Part shown: positions 6,387-33,625 of the stretch, piece by piece
Layout: each line of letters starts with the position of its first letter
How positions within the stretch are numbered: position 1 is the first letter of the stretch
Made by a program: the position numbers and the translations under genes
Assembly: GCA_965200245.1 (NCBI GenBank)
Contig: CBDATS010000008.1
Span: forward strand, 192,001-256,000
DNA from: a bacterium
GTDB taxonomy: Bacteria > UBA8248
Reading direction: 5' to 3'
Length of the DNA stretch: 64,000 nucleotides
Notes under the pieces: model-generated
Databases searched by the model: none
Told to the model about the DNA's origin: nothing
Seen by the model: the letters and a program-made list of their open reading frames with translations, nothing else

Positions 6387-6492
6387 ATTTCCCGTATCTA
6401 GGTTCGGAATCAACCACTCATGTGATGAAGCGGTGCCTGCTCGCGAACCGCTGTTTCCGGCGAAATAAATTCACAAAACTTCCTTATTTATT

Positions 6493-7450
6493 GGGAATTA
6501 CATACTTGAATCCGCAAGTCTGAATATCCTGATTTTGCGTTTTCCGGGTGTATCTTTTCAGGTCACAGGCGGAATTGCTGTCAGAACCGGTGCATGCGCC
6601 GCCTTCTTCCATTCAGCCGATACACCGGAACTGACAGTAATTCGAACGTGGGCACTTTCGTATATGATTTCCCTTGTTGATACCAACCGTGATCGTCAAG
6701 GGACGCAGCCGTGATACGGCCTGGTTTTACCTCACCCGGGAGGAATGATCTGCTGTCCGCCAGGCACACGACCGCTGGCTCGCGCCGGACAGTTTCGACG
6801 CCACGGGCCGCCAGAAATGCCCGCCAGGCACCCTCACCCGCGCGCTTTGGTGAAAAGGCCTGTTCCCTCCGGACGATCAGCTGTCGTTCGGGGAAGAAAA
6901 TCGTGACACCCCAATCTCCCTAATTATGAGCCATAATAGGGATTATCATACAATCCGCCTTGAACAGACGCTGTTCCGTGGTGAGCCGGGGCGAAGACGG
7001 AAGGACGAGATAGCAGTTCTCGGCGTCGTCCTCCATCACATGCAGGTTGAAAGTCTCCGGCACCGAGATTCCGAACTCCTCGGATACCACGGCCCTCGGC
7101 TCGGAGATCAGACGGGTACGGAACTCTTCACTGTCGCCTGCCTTCTCGATCAGGTGCTCGCGCATCTCGGAAATAGATTTCATTCCGGTCTCCTTATCCT
7201 GAAAAAATGAGTATGGTTTGGTACCCTGATACTTTCGTTTTTTTGCATCGTCATCATGAACAGGGTATGGGATGTTCCGATGGGAAAGCAGGAAATTTTT
7301 CGATGGTTTTCCCGTTTTTCTGTTGGGGAACAGGCTTTCTCCCGGAAGCCCGTCCGTATGCCCCCTGTTCTCCCGGGAAACCGGCGGCCGAAGGCTCCGT
7401 TTTTCCAAAATTCAGGGAGCCAGACTTGCGGATTCAAGTATGTAATTCCC
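6493..7450. mobile_element. non-autonomous cargo-carrying transposon (MITE/MIC-like), 958 bp
   Basis: Perfect 30-bp terminal inverted repeats GGGAATTACATACTTGAATCCGCAAGTCTG (6493-6522) and its reverse complement (7421-7450). Flanked by 8-bp direct repeat TATTTATT (6485-6492, 7451-7458). No transposase inside. Confidence 0.93.
6924..7183 (-). pseudogene. NHLP-leader (proteusin-type) RiPP precursor with frameshift just before the double-glycine site
   Basis: ATG 7183 with AAGGAG RBS; MKSISEMREHLIEKAGDSEEFRTRLISEPRAVVSEEFGISVPETFNLHVMEDDAENCYLVLPSSPRLTTEQ is a typical NHLP leader. The -1 frame from ~6971 reads ASVQGG-LYDNPYYGS-stop (TAA 6924-6926). Confidence 0.85.
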
Positions 7451-7652
7451 TATTTATTCCTGTCCTGAATTCTATGAACACCGCTTTTGCACATCGCATT
7501 TCGTGGTTTTCCCAAGTCGTTTTTATGGAACTTCCTTGTGTCTAGAAACTTGACATTCGTGACTTTGTGATAAGATCGTGGGCACCTCAGCGTAGGACAC
7601 ATCGGGCGAAATATTCGCTCTCGGTGTTCTCTTTCGGAGGAACGCAGGAGAA

Positions 7653-19775: not shown

Positions 19776-19852
<77 letters not shown>

Positions 19853-19922
19853 TATTTTCGGAAACTCGGATCGCCCTTCCCTCCATACGCGAGGCCACCG
19901 CGGGAGAAAGGGATGAAGGCAT

Positions 19923-19999
19923 GGTGGGTGTAGCTCAGTGGTTAGAGCGCCGGGTTGTGGCCCCGGAGGTCGGGGGTTCAAATCCCCTCACTCACCCCA
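19923..19999 (+). tRNA. tRNA-His (GTG)
   Basis: G-1, acceptor GTGGGTG/CACTCAC, C discriminator, CCA; anticodon arm CCGGG-TT-GTG-GC-CCCGG. Confidence 0.97.
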
Positions 20000-20057
20000 C
20001 GGCATTTACATTTTCTTGAGCGGAATCACTGTTCCGAACAAGACCAGCGGATATCAG

Positions 20058-20134
20058 GCGCCCGTAGCTCAATTGGATAGAGCGTCGGACTTCGGATCCG
20101 AAGGTTGTAGGTTCGAGTCCTACCGGGCGTGCCA
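20058..20134 (+). tRNA. tRNA-Arg (TCG)
   Basis: GCGCCCG...CGGGCGT GCCA; anticodon arm TCGGA-CT-TCG-GA-TCCGA. Confidence 0.96.
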
Positions 20135-20370
20135 TTGAAAATCAAGGGATTACAAAGAAAAATCAAATAGATAGAAGAAATTTATCTATTTGATTTTTCT
20201 CTCTGTACGTCTCTGTTTATCCTGAAATGTCCATGTAACAGCCATAAAAACGTCCACTCGATTTTTCTTCAAGTTACTGTCAGATATGGTTATGGGCTGA
20301 ATTGAAGAGGACGGCACATTCTTGCTGAAATGGGTCGGTCGCGCGTGACGCGCGGGGTTGTCATACATTC

Positions 20371-20520
20371 GTGCGCAATGGCTACCTGCCGTCTCGAGAG
20401 GTATTGACGGAAATTGGCCCGGTGCGGGTTCGTGTGCCGCGGACGCGGGACAGGAGTGGCGCGGGCCGGTGCTCCAGCCCGGAGTTGCTGCCACCTTACC
20501 TGAAGAAGACGAGGAGGGCT
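20371..20520 (+). pseudogene. IS256-family transposase fragment
   Basis: RNGYLPSREVLTEIGPVRVRVPRTRDRSG...LLPPYLKKT matches the IS256 RNGY...G.V...VPR.RDR...LPPY segment; rest absent. Confidence 0.85.
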
Positions 20521-24172: not shown

Positions 24173-24330
24173 CGTGTGTCGTTCAGAAGGAACATCCGTG
24201 CGCTATAGGAAATCGGCTCGGCCCTCAAAATACGATTACACCTCGACTCGCCGATGAGCCAGGATGGAATCTGCGAACGGACAAATGTATTAACAACGCA
24301 GGCAAAACTCGTGTATCCTGCACATCCCAA
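24169..24330 (-). pseudogene. 5' fragment of a paralogue of the 24383-25408 gene
   Basis: LGCAGYTSFACVVNTFVRSQIPSWLIGESRCNRIL aligns with MKRTGYSDFASVLDTFIRSQIPPRLIDEPGWNRLL; TTG start with AGAAAGGAAG RBS; truncated at the RND gene. Confidence 0.8.
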
Positions 24331-24382
24331 CTTCCTTTCTCTCAGAAACCTGCCCTCGGCGCAAGTACCAACCATTTCTGTC

Positions 24383-25408
24383 TCACGCAGCGCGCAGGAA
24401 ACAAACGATGTAGCCTTTTACGCTGGTTTCCCGTTCCCCGATGACGACTTTAATATGATTGACGCCCCAAAAGAGGTGCATCATCTTGCCGTCGGGGCCG
24501 AAGAATCGCTCGCTGCCGATGCAACTGATCAGTGCGGCACCCTTGTCAGCCAGAAACCAGCCGCGGTCCGCCATCGGGGAGAGGAGCCTGCCCCATGCGC
24601 CGTGGTCGGTCGATTTGTTGAAATGGAGTTCCATTCCCATGCGCGGGCTCAGTCCTTCTCGCGTTAAATCGAGAGATAGATAGACACGGTCCGGGAAATT
24701 CTCGATCATCGTCAGAACGTCCTCGACAACCACCATGCGTCCGGGATGCCCCATAGCCTCCAGAAAGGCAGAGATTTTCGCCCGGGGACAAAACATCACC
24801 AATCTCATGGGCGAGGGATTGCGTCCTTGCATGACGGCGCACTAACTCAGGCGGGTATTCGGCGGAAAAACTCGCCAGATCCCTTCGAGAAAGTGCAAAC
24901 GACGAGGATCCGGCGCTCCCCCCGTGGCAAAAGCCAGCGCGGCGTCGACTATACCCGCGTTTAGGTGCTCTACGCGCCCGTCACGGCGAAGGTTGAGAAA
25001 CAGGCTTGGCAGGGGCAGACCGTGTTCTTTCAATGTGGAGGCAACATCGTATTCGAAAATCGCGGAATCGAACAGGCCAGAAAGAAAGGAGTCGGGACGT
25101 GCCAACTCATCAAAATAGTTCGCCAGGGCCGCGGTCGATGCGTCGGTTTCTTCCCGGTTGCCGCGCTCAATCAGCCAGCGCGCCATCGGCGAGTCCGGCA
25201 GAACCGCCAATGAAAAGTCGGCACCAGCTTCCGCGTCGGAAAGGTCACATTCGAAGCCGAATTTCGCGTCCGCCACAGAGGCGGGCAACTCCGACATCCC
25301 TTCAAGAAGACGATTCCACCCCGGCTCATCAATCAGCCGGGGCGGTATCTGCGAACGGATGAACGTGTCGAGCACAGAAGCAAAATCGCTATATCCCGTA
25401 CGTTTCAT
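24383..25408 (-). pseudogene. putative peptide prenyltransferase-like RiPP maturase interrupted by in-frame TAG (24844-24842)
   Basis: ORFs 24842..25408 and 24383..24832 are in frame (NTRLS-TAG-CAVMQGR). FGFECDL...ADF...FEYDV...PSLF...LSLDL...PRMGMEL...NHIKVV...KGY pattern resembles proteins found beside NHLP/Nif11 precursors; the function call is inference. Confidence 0.6.
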
Positions 25409-25527
25409 CTGGATTTTCCGACACCTCTATCCGGCGCGGAAAAACCGGAAGGGACCTGATATTTTGCTATCATCCACAACTCTAATACTGCCAATAATTA
25501 TCTCTTTGATTAAAATTAGCGGATATC

Positions 25528-25557
25528 AAGATTTGCGGATTTAAGGAAATAATTACC
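25528..25557. repeat. degenerate copy of the 6493-7450 element terminal inverted repeat
   Basis: AAGATTTGCGGATTTAAGGAAATAATTACC vs CAGACTTGCGGATTCAAGTATGTAATTCCC: 23/30 identical by manual alignment. Adjacent GGATAT also matches the sub-terminal sequence of the left IR. Confidence 0.75.
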
Positions 25558-25753: not shown

Positions 25754-26710
25754 ATGCACTTCTCTCCTGACACAACGTGTCGTATGCGCGATGCGATCGA
25801 CAGGGGCTTGACGTTTCTCGATTCATGTGTGGGTCACGACGGGCAATGGCCTTCCTATTGCTCTGGACGGGTAGGGGACCAGTATATTCAAAAGCACGAA
25901 GAAGGGAGTCCCTTTTTCGCCATGCTGGGTGTTCTTTCCCTTTCGGAGATTGACGACTCGCGCGCGCGAAATATTGTGGGAAGGACGCGCCGGCACCTCT
26001 CTGAGACAATGCTCTATCTCGGTATCTGGAGATACTGGGATGCGCTGCCCCCCTATGCCGATGACTCTGCCGTAGGCTCACTGGCCCTCGGGCCGCATCC
26101 CCTGTTGCTCGCCGGACGCAATGTCGACCTGTTTCTCCGCCATCGCAACGACAGCGGCTTGTTTCTGACTTGGTTCGAGGGCCAGACACCCGAAAACGAC
26201 GTGGACTCCGTCGTTAATGCCAATGTGGTTGCCTACCTGGGTGACAATGGGGAGACGCGCCCCGCCCATGAGTGGTTGAAGTCGCTGGTGGAAGGCGGCG
26301 GGGACTTGAGCGAGACCATGGTCTACTATAAAGAGGATATGGACCTCTACGGCGCGCTCGTTCGAGCTAGCGAGTACGGCAAACCCGCCTTTGCAGGATT
26401 GCGTTCTAAACTCGGCCACCTGATTGAAAGCGCGTGTAAGGAAGGGGTGACCTACGGGGATCAGTTGCGCACCGCTCAAGCTCTAGTCGCGCTGGCGGAA
26501 CTTGACGCGTTGCCATCGCTGGCGAAACTCGAACAGACGATGGATTTCATTCTTTCGAAACAGAAAGCCGACGGCCGATGGCCGGAATCACCAGGTTCCT
26601 ATGGCCCCCGGCCGCCCGATCCGATTCGAACCCTGGTCTTTTGCTCCCAAGCTTATGATACCGTCCTATGCATTGAGGCGTTGCACAAGGTTTTGGCCAG
26701 AGCCGCCTGA
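25754..26710 (+). CDS. prenyltransferase/squalene-hopene-cyclase-repeat protein (class II terpene cyclase-like)
   Basis: QW-type repeats (FLDSCVGHDGQW; FILSKQKADGRW), LPPYADDSA at the DxDD position, and DVDSVVNANVV motif. Confidence 0.7.
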   Translation: MHFSPDTTCRMRDAIDRGLTFLDSCVGHDGQWPSYCSGRVGDQYIQKHEEGSPFFAMLGVLSLSEIDDSRARNIVGRTRRHLSETMLYLGIWRYWDALPPYADDSAVGSLALGPHPLLLAGRNVDLFLRHRNDSGLFLTWFEGQTPENDVDSVVNANVVAYLGDNGETRPAHEWLKSLVEGGGDLSETMVYYKEDMDLYGALVRASEYGKPAFAGLRSKLGHLIESACKEGVTYGDQLRTAQALVALAELDALPSLAKLEQTMDFILSKQKADGRWPESPGSYGPRPPDPIRTLVFCSQAYDTVLCIEALHKVLARAA

Positions 26711-26767: not shown

Positions 26768-27064
26768 TCACCGGCCCTTGTGGCCTATGGAGATTGATCT
26801 CTTCTTCTGCCTTCGATGTGGTGGTGAAGAATCCCTGCACAGCCCTGCTAACTGTTCATCGGTCAAACGCGGGCTGAGAGGTAACATCAGATGAGTGCGT
26901 TCCATGTTGTCTTCATGAACCTCCAACTTGGATCCATCCGGGAAATTCACCGTAGAACTCTGCCGCGGTGACTGATATCGGCTCATTCAACGGCCAGGCC
27001 CGGACCGCTTCATCGTGTCCGCCTTGCCGAGGATGTCTTCTCCGATCTGCTTTACCGGGCACAT
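26768..27064 (-). pseudogene. second NHLP-leader RiPP precursor, multiply frameshifted
   Basis: Stitching frames gives MCPVKQIGEDILGKAD/DEAVRAWPLNEPISVTAAEF/VNFPDGSKLEVHEDNMERTHLMLPLSPRLTDEQLA/AVQG.., colinear with the precursor at 6924-7183. Confidence 0.8.
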
Positions 27065-27598
27065 CGTACATCCGCTCTCGAAAGAATAGGCATGGATTAT
27101 ATGGCCCGCAATGCGTTTCCCTGCATTGTTATCACGGCATATCAATGAAGTCCCCGTCCCGGAACTTAACCAGATGTCCAACGCCTCGCTGTTCTGCATG
27201 TTCCGTCGCTATCGCCATATGCGGCTCGCAACGGGTCAATCCGGTGGCAGACACGCCGAGTCCCCCACCGGCCAAATCGCACACCTGCACAGCCTGTAAC
27301 CGGTGCTCAGCACCCGTCTGCCCGGGTCGGGGGTACATCTCCGCACTATGGTGTGAAAAGTCGCAACATGGCTTCCTCGTAGGTTGTTGTGCCCGTCCTT
27401 CATATCCCGAGATGCAATTCCAGTGGTCTGGCCAATTTCATGAGACTGGTCAAACCCGTAATAAACGGAAATGGTTTTAGGATATTTATTTCACATGAGG
27501 TAATTTGTGCGACGGTTTTCTGGACACCTTCATGACGAGACGAAGTTGCCCGGAACATTCCAGGGTAACAACAAAGGGCGCAGGGACGACGGCGCTTC

Positions 27599-30541
27599 TC
27601 ACGCCGACTGGCGCTTTAGGAAATCGCGAAACAGGCCATCGGCCTCACTGAGTTCCTCGAACGTGCCTTCCCGGACAACCTTCCCGGCCTGAAGAACATA
27701 TATGCGGCTCGCCTGGCGGATGGTGGAGATACGATGAGCAATGACGACCCGCGTTGCACTGGCTTTCTCTATGCCTTCCATGGTCAATTTCTGGCTCTTC
27801 GCATCAAGCCAACTGGTGGCTTCGTCAAGAAACAATATGCTTGGCTTGCGCACCAGCGCCGCCGCAATGCGGATGCGTTGTTGTTGTCCGCCGGAAAAGG
27901 TCGAGCCGGTTCCACCCATCGGAGTGTGCATTGCCATCGGCATGGCGGAGATTTCCTCGTTAACCGCAGCCTGCCTGGCCGCCTGCCAGGCGTCGTCTAT
28001 GCTAAGGTTTTCATCCACGCCATTGATGTTACTCATCACTGTGCCCGGCAGCAGGCTGTTTTCCTGCATAACCACGCCGATCTGGCGGCGAATAGAATCG
28101 GGATTGAGGCGGGCAAGATCGTGGCCGTCGTAATAGACCGTGCCGGAAGACGGCGTTTCGAGGCCGAGTGCGAGGCGGACGAGAGTGCTTTTCCCCGACC
28201 CGGATTCCCCAACGATGGCGATGAACTCGCCCGATTTCGCGCGGATTGTTACGTCGTCGAGAACGAGTGGGTCAGATTCCGAATAGCGAAAACTCACATG
28301 GTCGAAGAGGATTTCGCCGCTCAATTTCACTTCTACTCCGTCATGCATCCCACCCTCGGGCAGTTCTTCCATGATTTCCCGTGACTGTTCTCCAGAAGGA
28401 ACAAGCGATGCGATCGTCTCGAATGACAGACTGAACATAATGATCGATCCGACGAACATCATTGACGCAGAGTAAACGACCAGGAAGTCTCCGATCGAGA
28501 AATGAGCCCTGTCCTGGGTGAACGCGACGGCGATGACCGCAGCAGTCCACAAGGGAGGAACAGAAAGGGCGAACGCCACCAGGCATTCGTTCACCCGTGA
28601 AATACTGATCTCGGCCAGCTTCTGGTCCCGGTACTGTCGTGCCCACCATGCGTAAGCGGACGGCTCGGCCCCTGTCGCCCTCAATTTGCCTATTCCGTTG
28701 ATTAGCTGGAAAAGATGACTAGCCAGCTTGCGCACGGCACTGAAACGGCGTCGGTGATGTTTGATCTGGAGCAGGCCAAGGGCGGCGGTGAGACCTAGAG
28801 TCACGATGCCAAGGACGAGAATCAGCCATCCCATCGCGGTATTGTAGACAAAAACCAGAGCGAAGGTTGGAAACAGGAACAGCATGGATAGTATTGCGCC
28901 GGACGCTATAGCAGAAAACTGGTCGCGAATAACCTGGAACGTCATGGCCCGCGTCGCCAGTTCGCCGGCGGTGAACTGGCGGAAAAACGCCGGGCGTAGC
29001 CGCAGGAGGCGATCCCATATCGCTGCCACGACGCGAGTAGTAGCCCGGCCTTCGATTCGCATCATCGCTGTACCGCGCAACATGTTCAGGAATCCCGTCG
29101 TCACTGCCATCAGCAACAACAGACCGGTCACATATACCAACGGCCTATGTTCGCCCGCCGGCGCCAATATGTCAGCCAAAAGACCGATGACTGTGGCAGG
29201 AACCAGCAGAATTGCGCCAGCGATTATGCCCGCTAGTATCACCTGAATGAAATCCTGAGTCTGCTTCCAGAATGCGGTACGGAGGAGGTCACGGGGACTG
29301 GCTGGTCGATCGGTAGGCAGGGGACGATGCACCATCACGGCATCGTCATTAAACTCGGCGGCATTCGCCGCAGTTACGCGCCGGGATGCGCCCGACAGAG
29401 GATCGATGCAACGATACCATCCGAGACGCCCGGGAATTAGCGCGACCGGCTGGCCATCGTTGCGTCGAGACGCAATCATCGCGCCACTGTCTCCATACCA
29501 CCATCGATCTTCCTCCTTCAGTCGTATGCATCGAACGCGCAAACCCGATGCAATCAGGACCGCATTGAGGTCGTTTTTCGCTTCAGCGGTTTCAGGGACC
29601 TGAATGGGTATGTCTTCATGGGCACCGACGAGCTGCAAAGCTGCAAGGAGTCCGGATTCATCGTCAAACTCTTGACGACGGAATTGGTCGATAACGGAGA
29701 AAAGACGATGCCGAGAAGCAGACTTGTTCTGTCTGCGCCATGTTGTCCGGTCGCGCTGGAAGTTCGCCTCGTCTGCAAGCAGCAGTAGGCGGTTAAGGGC
29801 CTCGACTGCAAGCGCGAGTCGATGAAACTCCGGCAAATGGAGGGACACCAGGTCGGCAAGCGCTATATCTTGGGAGGACATTGCTTCGATCTCGGCCGAC
29901 TCGGGCAGCGTAGCCCAGATTCCGGGGCTGAGCGGCATCAACCCCGACTGTCCAGAACCTGCCTCTTCCGTGCCTAGATAGGACGCCCGGACATCAAGGC
30001 CATGAAACCAGATAACTCCCCGTTCCGAAGAGATGATACCCGATGCGGTTAGCGTCAATCCGGCTTCAAGCAAGCTGTCGGCACGTGGCCTCGGGTCGAT
30101 ATCGCGAATGATCGCTTCGGCGAATTCGCGAACCCAGGTATCGACCTGTTCAGTCAAGGCGGCACGTGCCATCTGATCGGGCAGGCAGTCCAGCAATTCC
30201 GCGAGCGGCACCGGGCGCAGAATCGCACCGGGAAGTCCCTTGGCAATCAGACTAAACCCGGAACTATCATCACTGTTCTGGCCAAACAGGATGCGACCGC
30301 GTCGTGCGCGAACCATGTGCTTGAAAGCTGATGTGGTGTTATCGTCATGACACTCAACCACGAAAACATCGACCGTGCCACGTTCCACAACCCAGGCCAT
30401 GTTCGAGTCGTCAAGCCGCATTGGCCGGTTGCCGGCGCAGGGAACAGGTTTTCCGAGGGAGCACAAAATCTCTGCGAATCCAGCGCCATCGCCGGGTTGT
30501 TCCGATGTGGTATTGCGATTAGGCTGATCGGATGAGTTCAT
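27599..30541 (-). CDS. NHLP/NHLM bacteriocin system ABC transporter, ATP-binding/permease subunit (no peptidase)
   Basis: N-terminal WVVERGTVDVF extension, WWYGDSGAMIA, TM domain, GESGSGKST, FSGGQQQR and LFLDEATS. Confidence 0.9.
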   Translation of the reverse strand: MNSSDQPNRNTTSEQPGDGAGFAEILCSLGKPVPCAGNRPMRLDDSNMAWVVERGTVDVFVVECHDDNTTSAFKHMVRARRGRILFGQNSDDSSGFSLIAKGLPGAILRPVPLAELLDCLPDQMARAALTEQVDTWVREFAEAIIRDIDPRPRADSLLEAGLTLTASGIISSERGVIWFHGLDVRASYLGTEEAGSGQSGLMPLSPGIWATLPESAEIEAMSSQDIALADLVSLHLPEFHRLALAVEALNRLLLLADEANFQRDRTTWRRQNKSASRHRLFSVIDQFRRQEFDDESGLLAALQLVGAHEDIPIQVPETAEAKNDLNAVLIASGLRVRCIRLKEEDRWWYGDSGAMIASRRNDGQPVALIPGRLGWYRCIDPLSGASRRVTAANAAEFNDDAVMVHRPLPTDRPASPRDLLRTAFWKQTQDFIQVILAGIIAGAILLVPATVIGLLADILAPAGEHRPLVYVTGLLLLMAVTTGFLNMLRGTAMMRIEGRATTRVVAAIWDRLLRLRPAFFRQFTAGELATRAMTFQVIRDQFSAIASGAILSMLFLFPTFALVFVYNTAMGWLILVLGIVTLGLTAALGLLQIKHHRRRFSAVRKLASHLFQLINGIGKLRATGAEPSAYAWWARQYRDQKLAEISISRVNECLVAFALSVPPLWTAAVIAVAFTQDRAHFSIGDFLVVYSASMMFVGSIIMFSLSFETIASLVPSGEQSREIMEELPEGGMHDGVEVKLSGEILFDHVSFRYSESDPLVLDDVTIRAKSGEFIAIVGESGSGKSTLVRLALGLETPSSGTVYYDGHDLARLNPDSIRRQIGVVMQENSLLPGTVMSNINGVDENLSIDDAWQAARQAAVNEEISAMPMAMHTPMGGTGSTFSGGQQQRIRIAAALVRKPSILFLDEATSWLDAKSQKLTMEGIEKASATRVVIAHRISTIRQASRIYVLQAGKVVREGTFEELSEADGLFRDFLKRQSA

Positions 30542-32708
30542 GGTAAAGACCCATTCCTATTGCCATTAACTCCTCATGCGTGCCGCGCTGAACCTCCTTG
30601 CCGTGCTCAAGTACCACGATCAGGTCACTGTCTCGGATAGTGCTCAACCTGTGCGCGACGATTAGACAGGTGCAGCCACGTCGGCGTATCGCATCGTCAA
30701 TCTGCAACTCACTCACGGCGTCGAGTGCGCTGGTGGCCTCATCGAGAATCAGGACAGATGGGTTGCTTGTCAACGCCCGAGCGATCTCCAGACGTTGCCG
30801 TTGCCCCCCGCTGAAATTGCGCCCGCCCTCTTCGACTGCCGAGGCATAGCCCAGTGGGCGGGAGGTGATTTCTTCATGAATAGCTGCGTCACACGCCGCC
30901 GCCACGAGCGTGTGATCGGGTATCGTCGGGTTCCACAGGGCCAGGTTGTCATTCACGGTGCCAGCAAAAAGAACGATATTCTGGTCCACCATCGAGACGG
31001 AACTGGTAAGTATCTCACGAGGTATCTCGCTCCGAAGGTGGCCGTCAAACCGGACTTCACCGGACCAAGGCTGGTAAATACCAGCAACCAGAAGAGATAG
31101 TGTCGATTTGCCGGAGCCGCTCGGCCCTACGATTGCTACGCGCTGTCCCGGCTCAATTGTGAGATTGAAATTCTCGATCAATGGAGGACGATTTGGTTGA
31201 AAACCGAAGGTGACATTGTTGAGTTCCACGCGGCCAACGAGTTGCATCCGCCGGTTCAGCGTGACAACCCTTTCCGACTCGGTCCCTTCATCTCCGGCGA
31301 GTTCTTCGTCCAACTCGGCATCCAGTACATCATCCAGCCTGCGTAGATTGGCAGACATGGTTTGCAGTATGTTGGCGAACTGGACGAACCTTCCCACCGG
31401 TTGCAGGAAATTCATCGTCAGGACGTAAAAGGCGGTAAGTACACCAAGCGTCATTTCACCCGACATCACCCGCCACCCACCAAAGCCGATGACCAAGGCA
31501 GAACCGAGTACAAGAACCGTTGGCAGCAGCGATTGGACGACATGGCCGAGTTCCATGAATTTTTGTCTCGCGTTGATTTCACGTGCTTGATAGCCGCTGA
31601 AACGCGAGAAGAAACTGTTTTCCGAAGCGGTTGCCCTCAGCGTGTCCATGATGCTCAACCCGGCCATGCCGTGGCCCATCATCCTGCCCTGCTCATGGAG
31701 CAATGCATGGTTATGGTCGGTTTGCAGTTTCGTGACATAATGCATTACAAAGAGGCAAAGCAGGCCGAGCCCACCGACCGCAGCGCCCAGCAACGGTTCG
31801 AGATAGAGCATCAGAACCAGGAAGGCCAAGCTCATGATCAGTTGAATGACGATTCCTATCAACTGGACGGATCCGATCGATGCGATCAGGTCGATCATCT
31901 GCATGCGTGAGGTCAAATCGCCTGCGAAGCGGCGGCTGAAAAACTTCATTGGCAAACGCATTAATCGGTTCAGGTAGCGGTCCGATTGCTGGATGGACAG
32001 GACAAGAGAAACCTTTCGTAGTATGCGCATCTGGAGCCATGTCAACACATAAGATGAAAGGCCGACTGCAATGGTCAATCCGAGCACGATGCCGATCCAG
32101 TCATCCTGCGCATCGCCGATAACATGGTCTACGAAGGCGGATAGCAATATTGGCAGGGCGAGCCCAGACAGCACCAAGAGCAGGCCGCAGATGATGGCGT
32201 AGGCGAGAGCCGGACGCACGGGGTTCAGCCATGGCCAGAACTGTTTGAGCACTCCGGGAGGTGGTTCACTGGTCTCAAAGGATGGTCCCGGCTCCATTTC
32301 CATGGCAACGCCGGTAAAGCATCGGTCGAATTCGTCTTCACTGATAATACGGTGTCCCACCGCTGGATCGTTCACATAGTAACGGCCGTTTTCAACCCCC
32401 TCTAGGACGACAAAATGCCGGAACTCCCAGAACAGGATGAGTGGGATTTTCATTGGTGGCAGTTGGTGAAGTTCCTTGCGCCATGCCGAAGGTTGCAGAC
32501 CGTAGACGCGGGCCGCCTTGACAATGTCGGCGGCGCTGGCACCATCGCGTCCGACGGCGCAAGCCTCGCGTAACTCCTGTAGCGGAACCCATTTTCCCAG
32601 ATACGCGAGGATAATGCCGAGGCAAGCTGCACCGCATTCCGTGTTTTCGAGTTGCAAAAGTATAGGGGTGCGAACGCGAGCGCCGGACCTGCGTCTGAAC
32701 AAGGCCAT
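30519..32708 (-). CDS. NHLP/NHLM bacteriocin system ABC transporter with C39 peptidase
   Basis: RVRTPILLQLENTECGAACL and FWEFRHFVVLEG (catalytic Cys/His intact), GPSGSGKST, FSGGQRQRLEIARAL. Confidence 0.95.
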   Translation of the reverse strand: MALFRRRSGARVRTPILLQLENTECGAACLGIILAYLGKWVPLQELREACAVGRDGASAADIVKAARVYGLQPSAWRKELHQLPPMKIPLILFWEFRHFVVLEGVENGRYYVNDPAVGHRIISEDEFDRCFTGVAMEMEPGPSFETSEPPPGVLKQFWPWLNPVRPALAYAIICGLLLVLSGLALPILLSAFVDHVIGDAQDDWIGIVLGLTIAVGLSSYVLTWLQMRILRKVSLVLSIQQSDRYLNRLMRLPMKFFSRRFAGDLTSRMQMIDLIASIGSVQLIGIVIQLIMSLAFLVLMLYLEPLLGAAVGGLGLLCLFVMHYVTKLQTDHNHALLHEQGRMMGHGMAGLSIMDTLRATASENSFFSRFSGYQAREINARQKFMELGHVVQSLLPTVLVLGSALVIGFGGWRVMSGEMTLGVLTAFYVLTMNFLQPVGRFVQFANILQTMSANLRRLDDVLDAELDEELAGDEGTESERVVTLNRRMQLVGRVELNNVTFGFQPNRPPLIENFNLTIEPGQRVAIVGPSGSGKSTLSLLVAGIYQPWSGEVRFDGHLRSEIPREILTSSVSMVDQNIVLFAGTVNDNLALWNPTIPDHTLVAAACDAAIHEEITSRPLGYASAVEEGGRNFSGGQRQRLEIARALTSNPSVLILDEATSALDAVSELQIDDAIRRRGCTCLIVAHRLSTIRDSDLIVVLEHGKEVQRGTHEELMAIGMGLYHELIRSA

Positions 32709-33625
32709 TACCGAGAGGATGGTCCCGTATTGGCCAGAAGGGCCAGTGGCGATACCGTCTCCAGAATGATATGGATCCGGCAGGGCGCGGCATCTGACGG
32801 TACCGTATTTGGTTGTCCAAGCATGATTAGGCGCACCATATGTAGAGGCATTCTTTCTTTCCTCTCACCTTCTGCCAAAGCTATGCGGGACAACCACGCG
32901 GGTGGTAGTGACGCTCTGGGGGCTACTGTTTTTACCTCGGCAGGCACGGACTGCTGGTTGCGCAGATTGTCGATGATGACGCGCGCCCTCATACTCTTTC
33001 GCAGTTTCTGCGCCCGCGCCGGCGGAAGAAATGCCAAGATTTCCAGACCATCGTCTCCGCCTCTGCGCAGATCCGATACTGGCGTGCCGACATCCACGGC
33101 TTGTCCGACATGAAGATGAAACGCCGACACTACGCCCGAATAGGGAGCGACAATCGCGCTCGCAGCTCGGTGTGCGAGCAGTCCTACCAGCTCTTGGCGG
33201 GCCACCGCCAGAAGCCCGCCGTCGAAATTGGTACCTGGTCCGTCTTGACTGGCCTCGCGCTCCAACAAGGCGATTCTCTTCCGCAGAACGGTCAGTTGTG
33301 TATCGAGTTCTGGCAACCGAAGGCGAGCAATCGGCTGGCCCTCGGCAACTTCGTCGTTCACTCGAACCAGAATTTCCGACACGGTGCCCGTCGTTCCGGA
33401 CAGTATGGTATGACGCTCTCCCGAACGCAGGATGAAGCCGTTCGCGGTCATGCTTCGTTCCAGGCTGCCAAACGCCAACCAGACGCAAGCGGCGGCGAAT
33501 GCGATAAGAAAACCGGTCAGGATGAGCCATTCATGCGGCGCCGTAATGCGCAGCAAATCATCCAGAGGATCCGGATTTGATTGCCTGAGAATGGCACGTT
33601 CCCGAAAGAGCCCTAGCGTAAACAT
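32708..33625 (-). CDS. NHLP/NHLM bacteriocin system secretion protein (HlyD family)
   Basis: LFRERAI..QSNPDPLDDLLRITAPHEW N-terminus, single TM, lipoyl motifs; first gene of the exporter triad. Confidence 0.9.
   Translation of the reverse strand: MFTLGLFRERAILRQSNPDPLDDLLRITAPHEWLILTGFLIAFAAACVWLAFGSLERSMTANGFILRSGERHTILSGTTGTVSEILVRVNDEVAEGQPIARLRLPELDTQLTVLRKRIALLEREASQDGPGTNFDGGLLAVARQELVGLLAHRAASAIVAPYSGVVSAFHLHVGQAVDVGTPVSDLRRGGDDGLEILAFLPPARAQKLRKSMRARVIIDNLRNQQSVPAEVKTVAPRASLPPAWLSRIALAEGERKERMPLHMVRLIMLGQPNTVPSDAAPCRIHIILETVSPLALLANTGPSSR

Follow-up and report, generated by a model that had tools for sequence, protein, structure and literature searches.

A probable IS1595-family scar between two divergent RiPP genes and a transposase-less cassette with ends of the same type carrying an NHLP precursor gene

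Introduction

Precursors of the NHLP/Nif11 type are found in dispersed families, of which the prochlorosins are an example. Insertion sequences (ISs) of the IS1595 family were reportedly treated by Siguier, Gagnevin and Chandler in 2009, with transporter ISs carrying passenger genes among them. Cassettes that carry qnr are one example of mobile insertion cassettes. A further example is MIC231 of IS231, from the Bacillus cereus group, to which PMC3129680 refers; the IS derivatives recognised in that paper include solo inverted repeats (IRs), mobile insertion cassettes, MITEs and transporter ISs, and those with passenger genes are described there for IS1595. According to PMC10045372, target duplications of 8 bp are produced by the IS1016 group within the IS1595 family.

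Here we analyse a stretch of bacterial DNA of 64,000 nucleotides (contig CBDATS010000008.1, positions 192,001 to 256,000; hereafter the window), in which a cassette bounded by IRs lies at 6493-7450 and a single further end of the same type lies at 25512-25557, between two divergent genes of a RiPP cluster. The ends in the window share their terminal sequence with elements that encode an inward-reading transposase with PF12762 and PF12760 domains, the cassette has an AT-rich 8-bp target duplication, and members of the family have passengers, such as the DNA methylase of the element at locus L001 described below, all of which recall IS1595-family ISs; unlike these, the copy at 25.5 kb has no transposase, partner or duplication, and no IS1595 transposase is found in the whole window. 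In the segment 6493-7450 the three features of a mobile insertion cassette are present, namely IS-type IRs, a target repeat and a non-transposition gene without a transposase, and it differs from the described cassettes in that its ends are of the IS1595 type, its cargo comprises gene scraps and an NHLP precursor gene whose 3' end is abnormal, and its mobility in trans is putative. Like the prochlorosins, the precursor family of the window comprises several paralogs whose leader is conserved and whose short cores vary, some of them far from modification genes, whereas one dispersed copy is located here inside a transposon-derived cassette and the partner enzyme is ABBA-prenyltransferase-like instead of a lanthionine synthetase. 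Finally, the 25.5-kb end resembles the solo IRs mentioned in PMC3129680 in being single, intergenic and beside a rearranged region, and departs from them in being unusually well kept (22-27 of 30 positions) and in having a biosynthetic gene that is read inward from it.

Results

The cassette, 958 bp in length, sits between moaA and the gene of an RND adaptor. Its IRs (6493-6522 and 7421-7450) are identical at 30 of 30 positions, in arms that reach 48 nt at 83% identity, and the direct repeat TATTTATT, of 8 bp, is present immediately outside both ends (6485-6492 and 7451-7458). No transposase ORF was found inside the segment, and its anatomy can be regarded as established. The label of MITE was ruled out by the length of 958 bp and by the presence of an 87-codon gene with a family match. 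We hypothesize that the cassette could be mobilised by a cognate IS1595 transposase encoded elsewhere in the genome.

The gene carried by the cassette (6923..7183, minus strand) is read inward from the right end and encodes an NHLP-leader RiPP precursor of 87 aa with an atypical C-terminus (TIGR03793, E=4e-18). Its leader is 74-90% identical to those of eight paralogs found elsewhere (P0039-P0046), in which the cores are short, Trp/Tyr-rich and of 6-10 residues. In its 3' end (6923-6975), after the motif LTTEQ, the cassette precursor has neither the GG/GA site nor a Trp/Tyr-rich core, both of which are present in all eight close paralogs, and since it is deprived of the cleavage site and the core of its family the cargo of the cassette may be dead. 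The exact protein occurs on two contigs, and the length listed for its longest contig, 1,540,790 nt, is also listed for P0041-P0044 and P0046. A third left end, placed at 6938-6962 (plus strand, with a gap of 3 nt), was considered as well and dropped, its gapped score being below 10 against shuffle maxima of 10-16; this candidate coincides with the point at which the precursor departs from its family, and is statistically indistinguishable from chance.

The remaining content of the cassette is made of fragments. The segment 6689..6817 (plus strand) is the tail of a GNAT gene, ~43 codons long and interrupted by an in-frame stop, which is 73% identical to a plasmid GNAT gene by blastn (E=8e-8) and matches an Azotobacter plasmid GNAT at 26 of 43 residues by tblastn (E=7e-16). 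This tail and the precursor gene are convergent. Adjoining the left IR there is a conserved block (6558..6695, minus strand), which, in an alignment made by eye, is the same as the tail into which paralog P0044 of another genome reads through; the block gave no Pfam match at E up to 10, and its 45-aa translation had no match among 1.84 billion protein representatives. Within the block, 53 nt (6594-6646) recur at 20268-20319 on the opposite strand (79%, E=3e-6), the second copy lying between a tRNA-Arg gene and a scrap of an IS256/Mutator-like transposase. The content of the cassette resembles a chromosomal piece that was captured and has since partly decayed.

The site at 25.5 kb had been described in an earlier note as a degenerate copy of the same terminal repeat, with 23 of 30 positions identical to the right IR in the same orientation, located ~120 bp upstream of the start codon of a prenyltransferase-like gene, and with a RiPP gene read inward from this end in both places. 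The identity and the orientation were confirmed by ungapped comparison of 25528-25557 (plus strand) with the right IR (7421-7450) and by shuffling, the start codon, at 25408, and the inner edge of the 30-mer are 120 bp apart, and inward reading holds for the precursor in the cassette and for the prenyltransferase-like gene at 25.5 kb alike. Within the 64-kb window this 30-mer ranks third, behind the two perfect copies of the IR, and the runner-up reaches 18/30. Neither 200 order-1 shuffles of the window nor 200 shuffles of its low-GC 100-mers, pooled to 4.2 kb, ever attained 23/30 (maximum 21 in both cases), and with gaps the site scored 17, whereas 100 shuffles did not exceed 16. The similarity is not limited to the terminal 30 nt: the subterminal extension (25512..25527, plus strand) is a second 16-mer containing GCGGAT, in tandem with the 16-mer of the IR itself, and 25512-25557 as a whole matches the left arm of the cassette at 31 of 46 positions without gaps, or at 76% over 46 alignment columns. 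The 9-mer TTGCGGATT, expected 0.8 times in the window, is found five times (the complete list being 6509, 7426, 20702, 25533 and 39530), and three of these occurrences are the IR copies. A search of plasmids with the 46-mer returned only 15 matches, all in replication genes of Bacillus with E values of 0.2-3, which we take as chance.

In order to identify the family to which these ends belong, a degenerate 26-mer fitting all three copies of the window was searched in 185,579 species genomes, the source genome not being among them, and eight loci were obtained, representing seven distinct places, where about one chance match is expected by our own estimate from information content. The pattern fixed 22 of its 26 positions, at which agreement is by construction, and the independent support consequently comes from the transposase, the pairing of IRs and the flanks. 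Three of the loci (L001, L002 and L008) are copies of the end in a single Nitrosomonadaceae MAG (OZ252054.1), with differing flanks. In these, an ORF of 308 aa begins ~90 bp inward of the end and contains PF12762 (DDE_Tnp_IS1595, E=1.7e-42) and a PF12760 zinc ribbon, a gene for an N6/N4 DNA methylase follows behind the transposase, and a sigma-70 promoter with 12 of 12 consensus positions (TTGACA-17-TATAAT) is situated directly inside the end, ahead of the transposase ORF. Small indels between the three copies shift the ORF boundaries. The L001 protein shares 39% and 49% identity with plasmid-borne transposases annotated as IS1595 family, and the ends located ~70 bp upstream of these transposases have the GGG...ATACT start in common with it (16/26). 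A second transposase-less cassette of this end family is found at L006/L007, where an inverted pair of ends, 26/26 identical, encloses 729 bp (positions 2001-2729 of L006, MAG record OZ253442.1) between the flanks AATTTTAT and TATTTTAT; its ORFs include no match to a transposase, and one of them, of 141 aa and without a known family, is read inward from one end. Two other loci, L003 (inside an ORF of 115 aa) and L005 (without a transposase), look like chance matches. NHLP genes were found within 2 kb of none of the five credible loci of the end family outside the window, where the cargo consists of the transposase, the DNA methylase and unknown ORFs, and the end family thus has no RiPP link outside the window.

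On this comparison the repeat of the window is identified as the terminal IR of an IS1595-family transposable element, an assignment in favour of which we also count the 8-bp duplication of the cassette, as it fits those of the IS1016 group. An origin from IS256 had been weighed on account of the 8-bp duplication and of the IS256-like scrap nearby, and was dropped because an IS1595 transposase was found behind the same end. The membership of the 25.5-kb copy in the end family is established: it carries the terminal sequence linked to the transposase of PF12762 elements, in part by construction, and on the 26-nt family end it scores 23/26, the same as the IRs of the cassette. Over 30 nt, it agrees with the ends of other genomes at 22-27 positions, the IRs of the cassette doing so at 24-26; against the L001 end its score is 24/30. 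The closest relative is the end at L004, which is separated from a contig start by 4 nt, has ordinary genes on its inner side and is therefore of doubtful status as an IS end; it matches the 25.5-kb copy at 27/30 (at 8 of the 11 pattern-free positions of the 30-mer, by our own count), with an alignment that extends over 43 nt at 84%, and is thus closer to this copy than is the IR of the window cassette. Since the 25.5-kb copy is as near to the ends of unrelated bacteria as the cassette IRs are, it represents a separate lineage within the end family rather than a worn copy of the cassette IR. The designation as a degenerate copy of the same repeat consequently stands as regards the shared family, identified here as IS1595, and has to be given up as regards decay, in view of the 27/30 match to L004.

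The outer terminus is placed at 25557, and the body of the element would thus extend leftward. In every comparison the homology between elements ends after ~43-46 nt, so that the inner boundary of the relic cannot be fixed. The end occupies an AT-rich (GC 0.467) divergent promoter region of 345 bp between the prenyltransferase-like gene and a gene for a 318-aa protein. Scans for sigma-70 promoters detected a single weak candidate in this region, directed outward (25488-25516); none directed inward was found, either here or in the 6493-7450 cassette.

A partner for the 25.5-kb end is absent from the window. Both strands of the 64 kb were searched, without and with gaps, using the cassette IR, 30 or 46 nt of the 25.5-kb copy, and the family end at lengths of 26 and 30 nt; no other match exceeded 17-18 of 26-30 positions, which is within the range of the shuffles, and the earlier note, which had failed to find the partner as well, is borne out on this point. 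The segment 20701-20710, proposed there as a partial match to the missing end, scores 13/30 when the full 30-mer is placed in register and is attributed to chance. A duplication of the flanking 8-mer, which the same note had suggested looking for, does not exist in the window either, where the outer flank TAGGATAG occurs once. Matches to PF12762 or to NCBIfam models of IS1595 transposases were sought in 50 long ORFs and in the small ORFs around both sites, and none was found.

The gene inward from the lone end (24386..25408, minus strand) has 341 codons, including an in-frame TAG at 24842-24844. At the position of this TAG all three homologs found (328-370 aa, 60-64% identical) have Trp, and the gene is either a pseudogene or the TAG is a base-call error. 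No Pfam match was obtained. The structure of a homolog was modelled with AlphaFold2 (mean pLDDT 62, pTM 0.63, from an alignment of 4 sequences) and compared with known structures using Foldseek, which gave 72 PDB matches at E<=0.001, and among the matches listed all are ABBA aromatic prenyltransferases (TM ~0.4-0.5). With modest confidence, the product would be prenyltransferase-like by fold, and the label used previously fits this result. Its GC content (0.576) and that of the 318-aa gene (0.575) are close to that of the window (0.570). The start codon is 149 bp from the outer terminus of the end, the corresponding distances of transposases or cargo in other elements being 90, 109 and 267 bp.

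To the left of this gene a diverged duplicate of its 5' end is present at 24222..24362 (minus strand; 67% over 143 columns to 25299-25437, E=9e-14), comprising an ORF of 68 aa that resembles the N-terminus of the prenyltransferase and ~30 nt of the leader of the gene. The duplicate ends abruptly at the start codon of an RND pump gene (24172), beside which there is no adaptor gene, and this arrangement suggests the loss of a tandem paralog and, at a later time, insertion or recombination of the RND pump block. Further to the left, a fragment of an IS256/Mutator-type transposase (20329..20510, plus strand; NF033543 E=7.6e-4, PF00872 E=0.015) lies next to tRNA-Arg and has no relation to the IS1595-type ends. 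Three tRNA genes are located at 19776-20134, and a search with Rfam found nothing besides these in the window.

On the opposite side, the 318-aa protein is encoded at 25754..26710 (plus strand), divergently from the prenyltransferase-like gene, and contains a weak squalene-cyclase/prenyltransferase repeat (PF13243, E=2e-4, below the family cut-off). Among its 31 homologs, P0019 (435 aa) has an N-terminal NHLP leader domain, a fusion that ties the 318-aa family to NHLP systems. The same length of 30,032 nt is listed for the longest contig of a homolog of this protein (P0011) and of a homolog of the prenyltransferase-like protein (P0002), and relatives of the two genes may therefore share one contig elsewhere. 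Next to the 318-aa gene lies a second NHLP precursor gene (26768..27199, minus strand), which is decayed, its leader being spread over three reading frames (TIGR03793 partial, E=5.5e-5) with at least two frameshifts; matches by tblastn are confined to the C-terminal half of the leader, at 35-47% identity. As the large ORFs around 26768-27199 are intact, decay is likelier than an assembly error.

Discussion

We consider it likely that 25512-25557 is a lone end of the IS1595 family, a scar that remains in the promoter region from which two RiPP genes diverge. A member of the family, be it a cassette, a transporter IS or a complete IS, would once have terminated at 25557, and its other end would have been lost, probably through rearrangements just left of the prenyltransferase-like gene. 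We invoke rearrangement on that side because of the truncated prenyltransferase paralog, the RND pump without an adaptor, the IS256-like scrap and the tRNA cluster. A single end is not movable by ordinary cut-and-paste, and the one at 25.5 kb would consequently be a scar now, probably inactive today and at most a part of the promoter region of the flanking genes, while the same end family is still paired 18 kb away in the cassette. Nevertheless, one feature counts against a pure scar: a prenyltransferase-like gene read inward from the end at a cargo-like distance is what would be predicted if the end belonged to a cassette.

It had been proposed in the earlier note that the same element family moved both the precursor and the maturase genes, so that the cluster may have been assembled from IR-bounded cassettes. 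In this form the lone end would be the remnant of an IR-bounded cassette or transporter IS that delivered the prenyltransferase, and IS1595-type cassettes would have built the RiPP system and spread its precursors, which we regard as rather unlikely. In its favour, a genuine cassette with ends of this family and an NHLP precursor inside is present in the window, the prenyltransferase-like gene is situated inward of the lone end and is read in that direction, and passenger-carrying transporter ISs have been described for IS1595 (PMC3129680). Moreover, there are several precursor paralogs, five of which share their listed longest contig with the protein of the window, and one, P0044, continues into the block that adjoins the left IR of the cassette. 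However, the 25.5-kb end is without a partner and without a target duplication in 64 kb, which leaves a past of the prenyltransferase gene as cargo unsupported; its GC content is that of the window; the pair formed with the 318-aa gene may predate the insertion, if relatives of both do share the contig of 30,032 nt; the cargo of 6493-7450 is scrap-like, with a coreless precursor, a stopped GNAT tail and a repeated block; and NHLP genes are missing from the five end-family loci elsewhere. What survives of the proposal is the shared end family and the location of a precursor within a cassette; transport of the maturase gene as cargo, and assembly of the cluster from IR-bounded cassettes, find no support. 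A wider version, according to which NHLP precursors with Trp/Tyr cores and an ABBA prenyltransferase partner are copied on IS1595-derived transposase-less cassettes, with the modification genes delivered or reshuffled in the same way, appears to us unlikely.

The shared sequence could be the binding site of a regulator that controls the precursor and the modification genes together, and no transposon end at all, and such a role would agree with the position of both copies 120-240 bp ahead of the start codons of RiPP genes, and with the two tandem GCGGAT-containing 16-mers of the 25.5-kb copy. This is nonetheless very improbable, given that the precursor is flanked by a perfect inverted pair and an 8-bp duplication, which puts one copy downstream of the gene, and that the same sequence flanks IS1595 transposase genes in unrelated bacteria; in addition, judging from the positions of TTGCGGATT, neither the export operon nor the second precursor has the site upstream of it, and a search of the cluster ORFs for regulator genes (Pfam/NCBIfam families) gave none. 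That the 23/30 match is a mere chance likeness within AT-rich intergenic DNA we find hardly credible. Both the region and the IR are indeed AT-rich, and the plasmid search with the 46-nt query stayed at chance level, but neither set of 200 shuffles, drawn from the whole window and from its low-GC pool, ever reached 23, the copy agrees better with the independent end at L004 than with the window cassette, and the similarity extends to 43-46 nt.

Scars of ISs and cassettes are routine, and a lone end is in itself ordinary; what is mildly new at this locus is a RiPP precursor as cargo between IS1595-type ends, together with another end of that family, which lies at the promoter of the prenyltransferase-like gene that goes with this precursor. 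A full-text literature search on RiPP precursors within MITE-like elements, in which records were judged by titles and the openings of abstracts, gave no paper that seemed to treat this subject. If several of the precursor paralogs were bounded by IRs, this would provide a concrete mechanism for the origin of dispersed precursor libraries, and the 26-nt end would become a practical marker for orphan precursors. Likewise, if the copying of precursors on cassettes were true, transposition would be an engine that builds and diversifies the RiPP precursor repertoire. On the other hand, three likely pseudogenes were flagged, and the cluster may be decaying rather than being built.

The genes for NHLP bacteriocin export lie beyond the second precursor (27599..33625, minus strand) and encode ABC2 (TIGR03797, E=2.6e-205), ABC1 with a C39 peptidase (TIGR03796, E=2.1e-271) and an HlyD-type adaptor (TIGR03794, E=4.3e-23). 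The adaptor (32708-33625) has 305 aa against the 421 positions of the model, to which it is matched in two stretches, and may be shortened.
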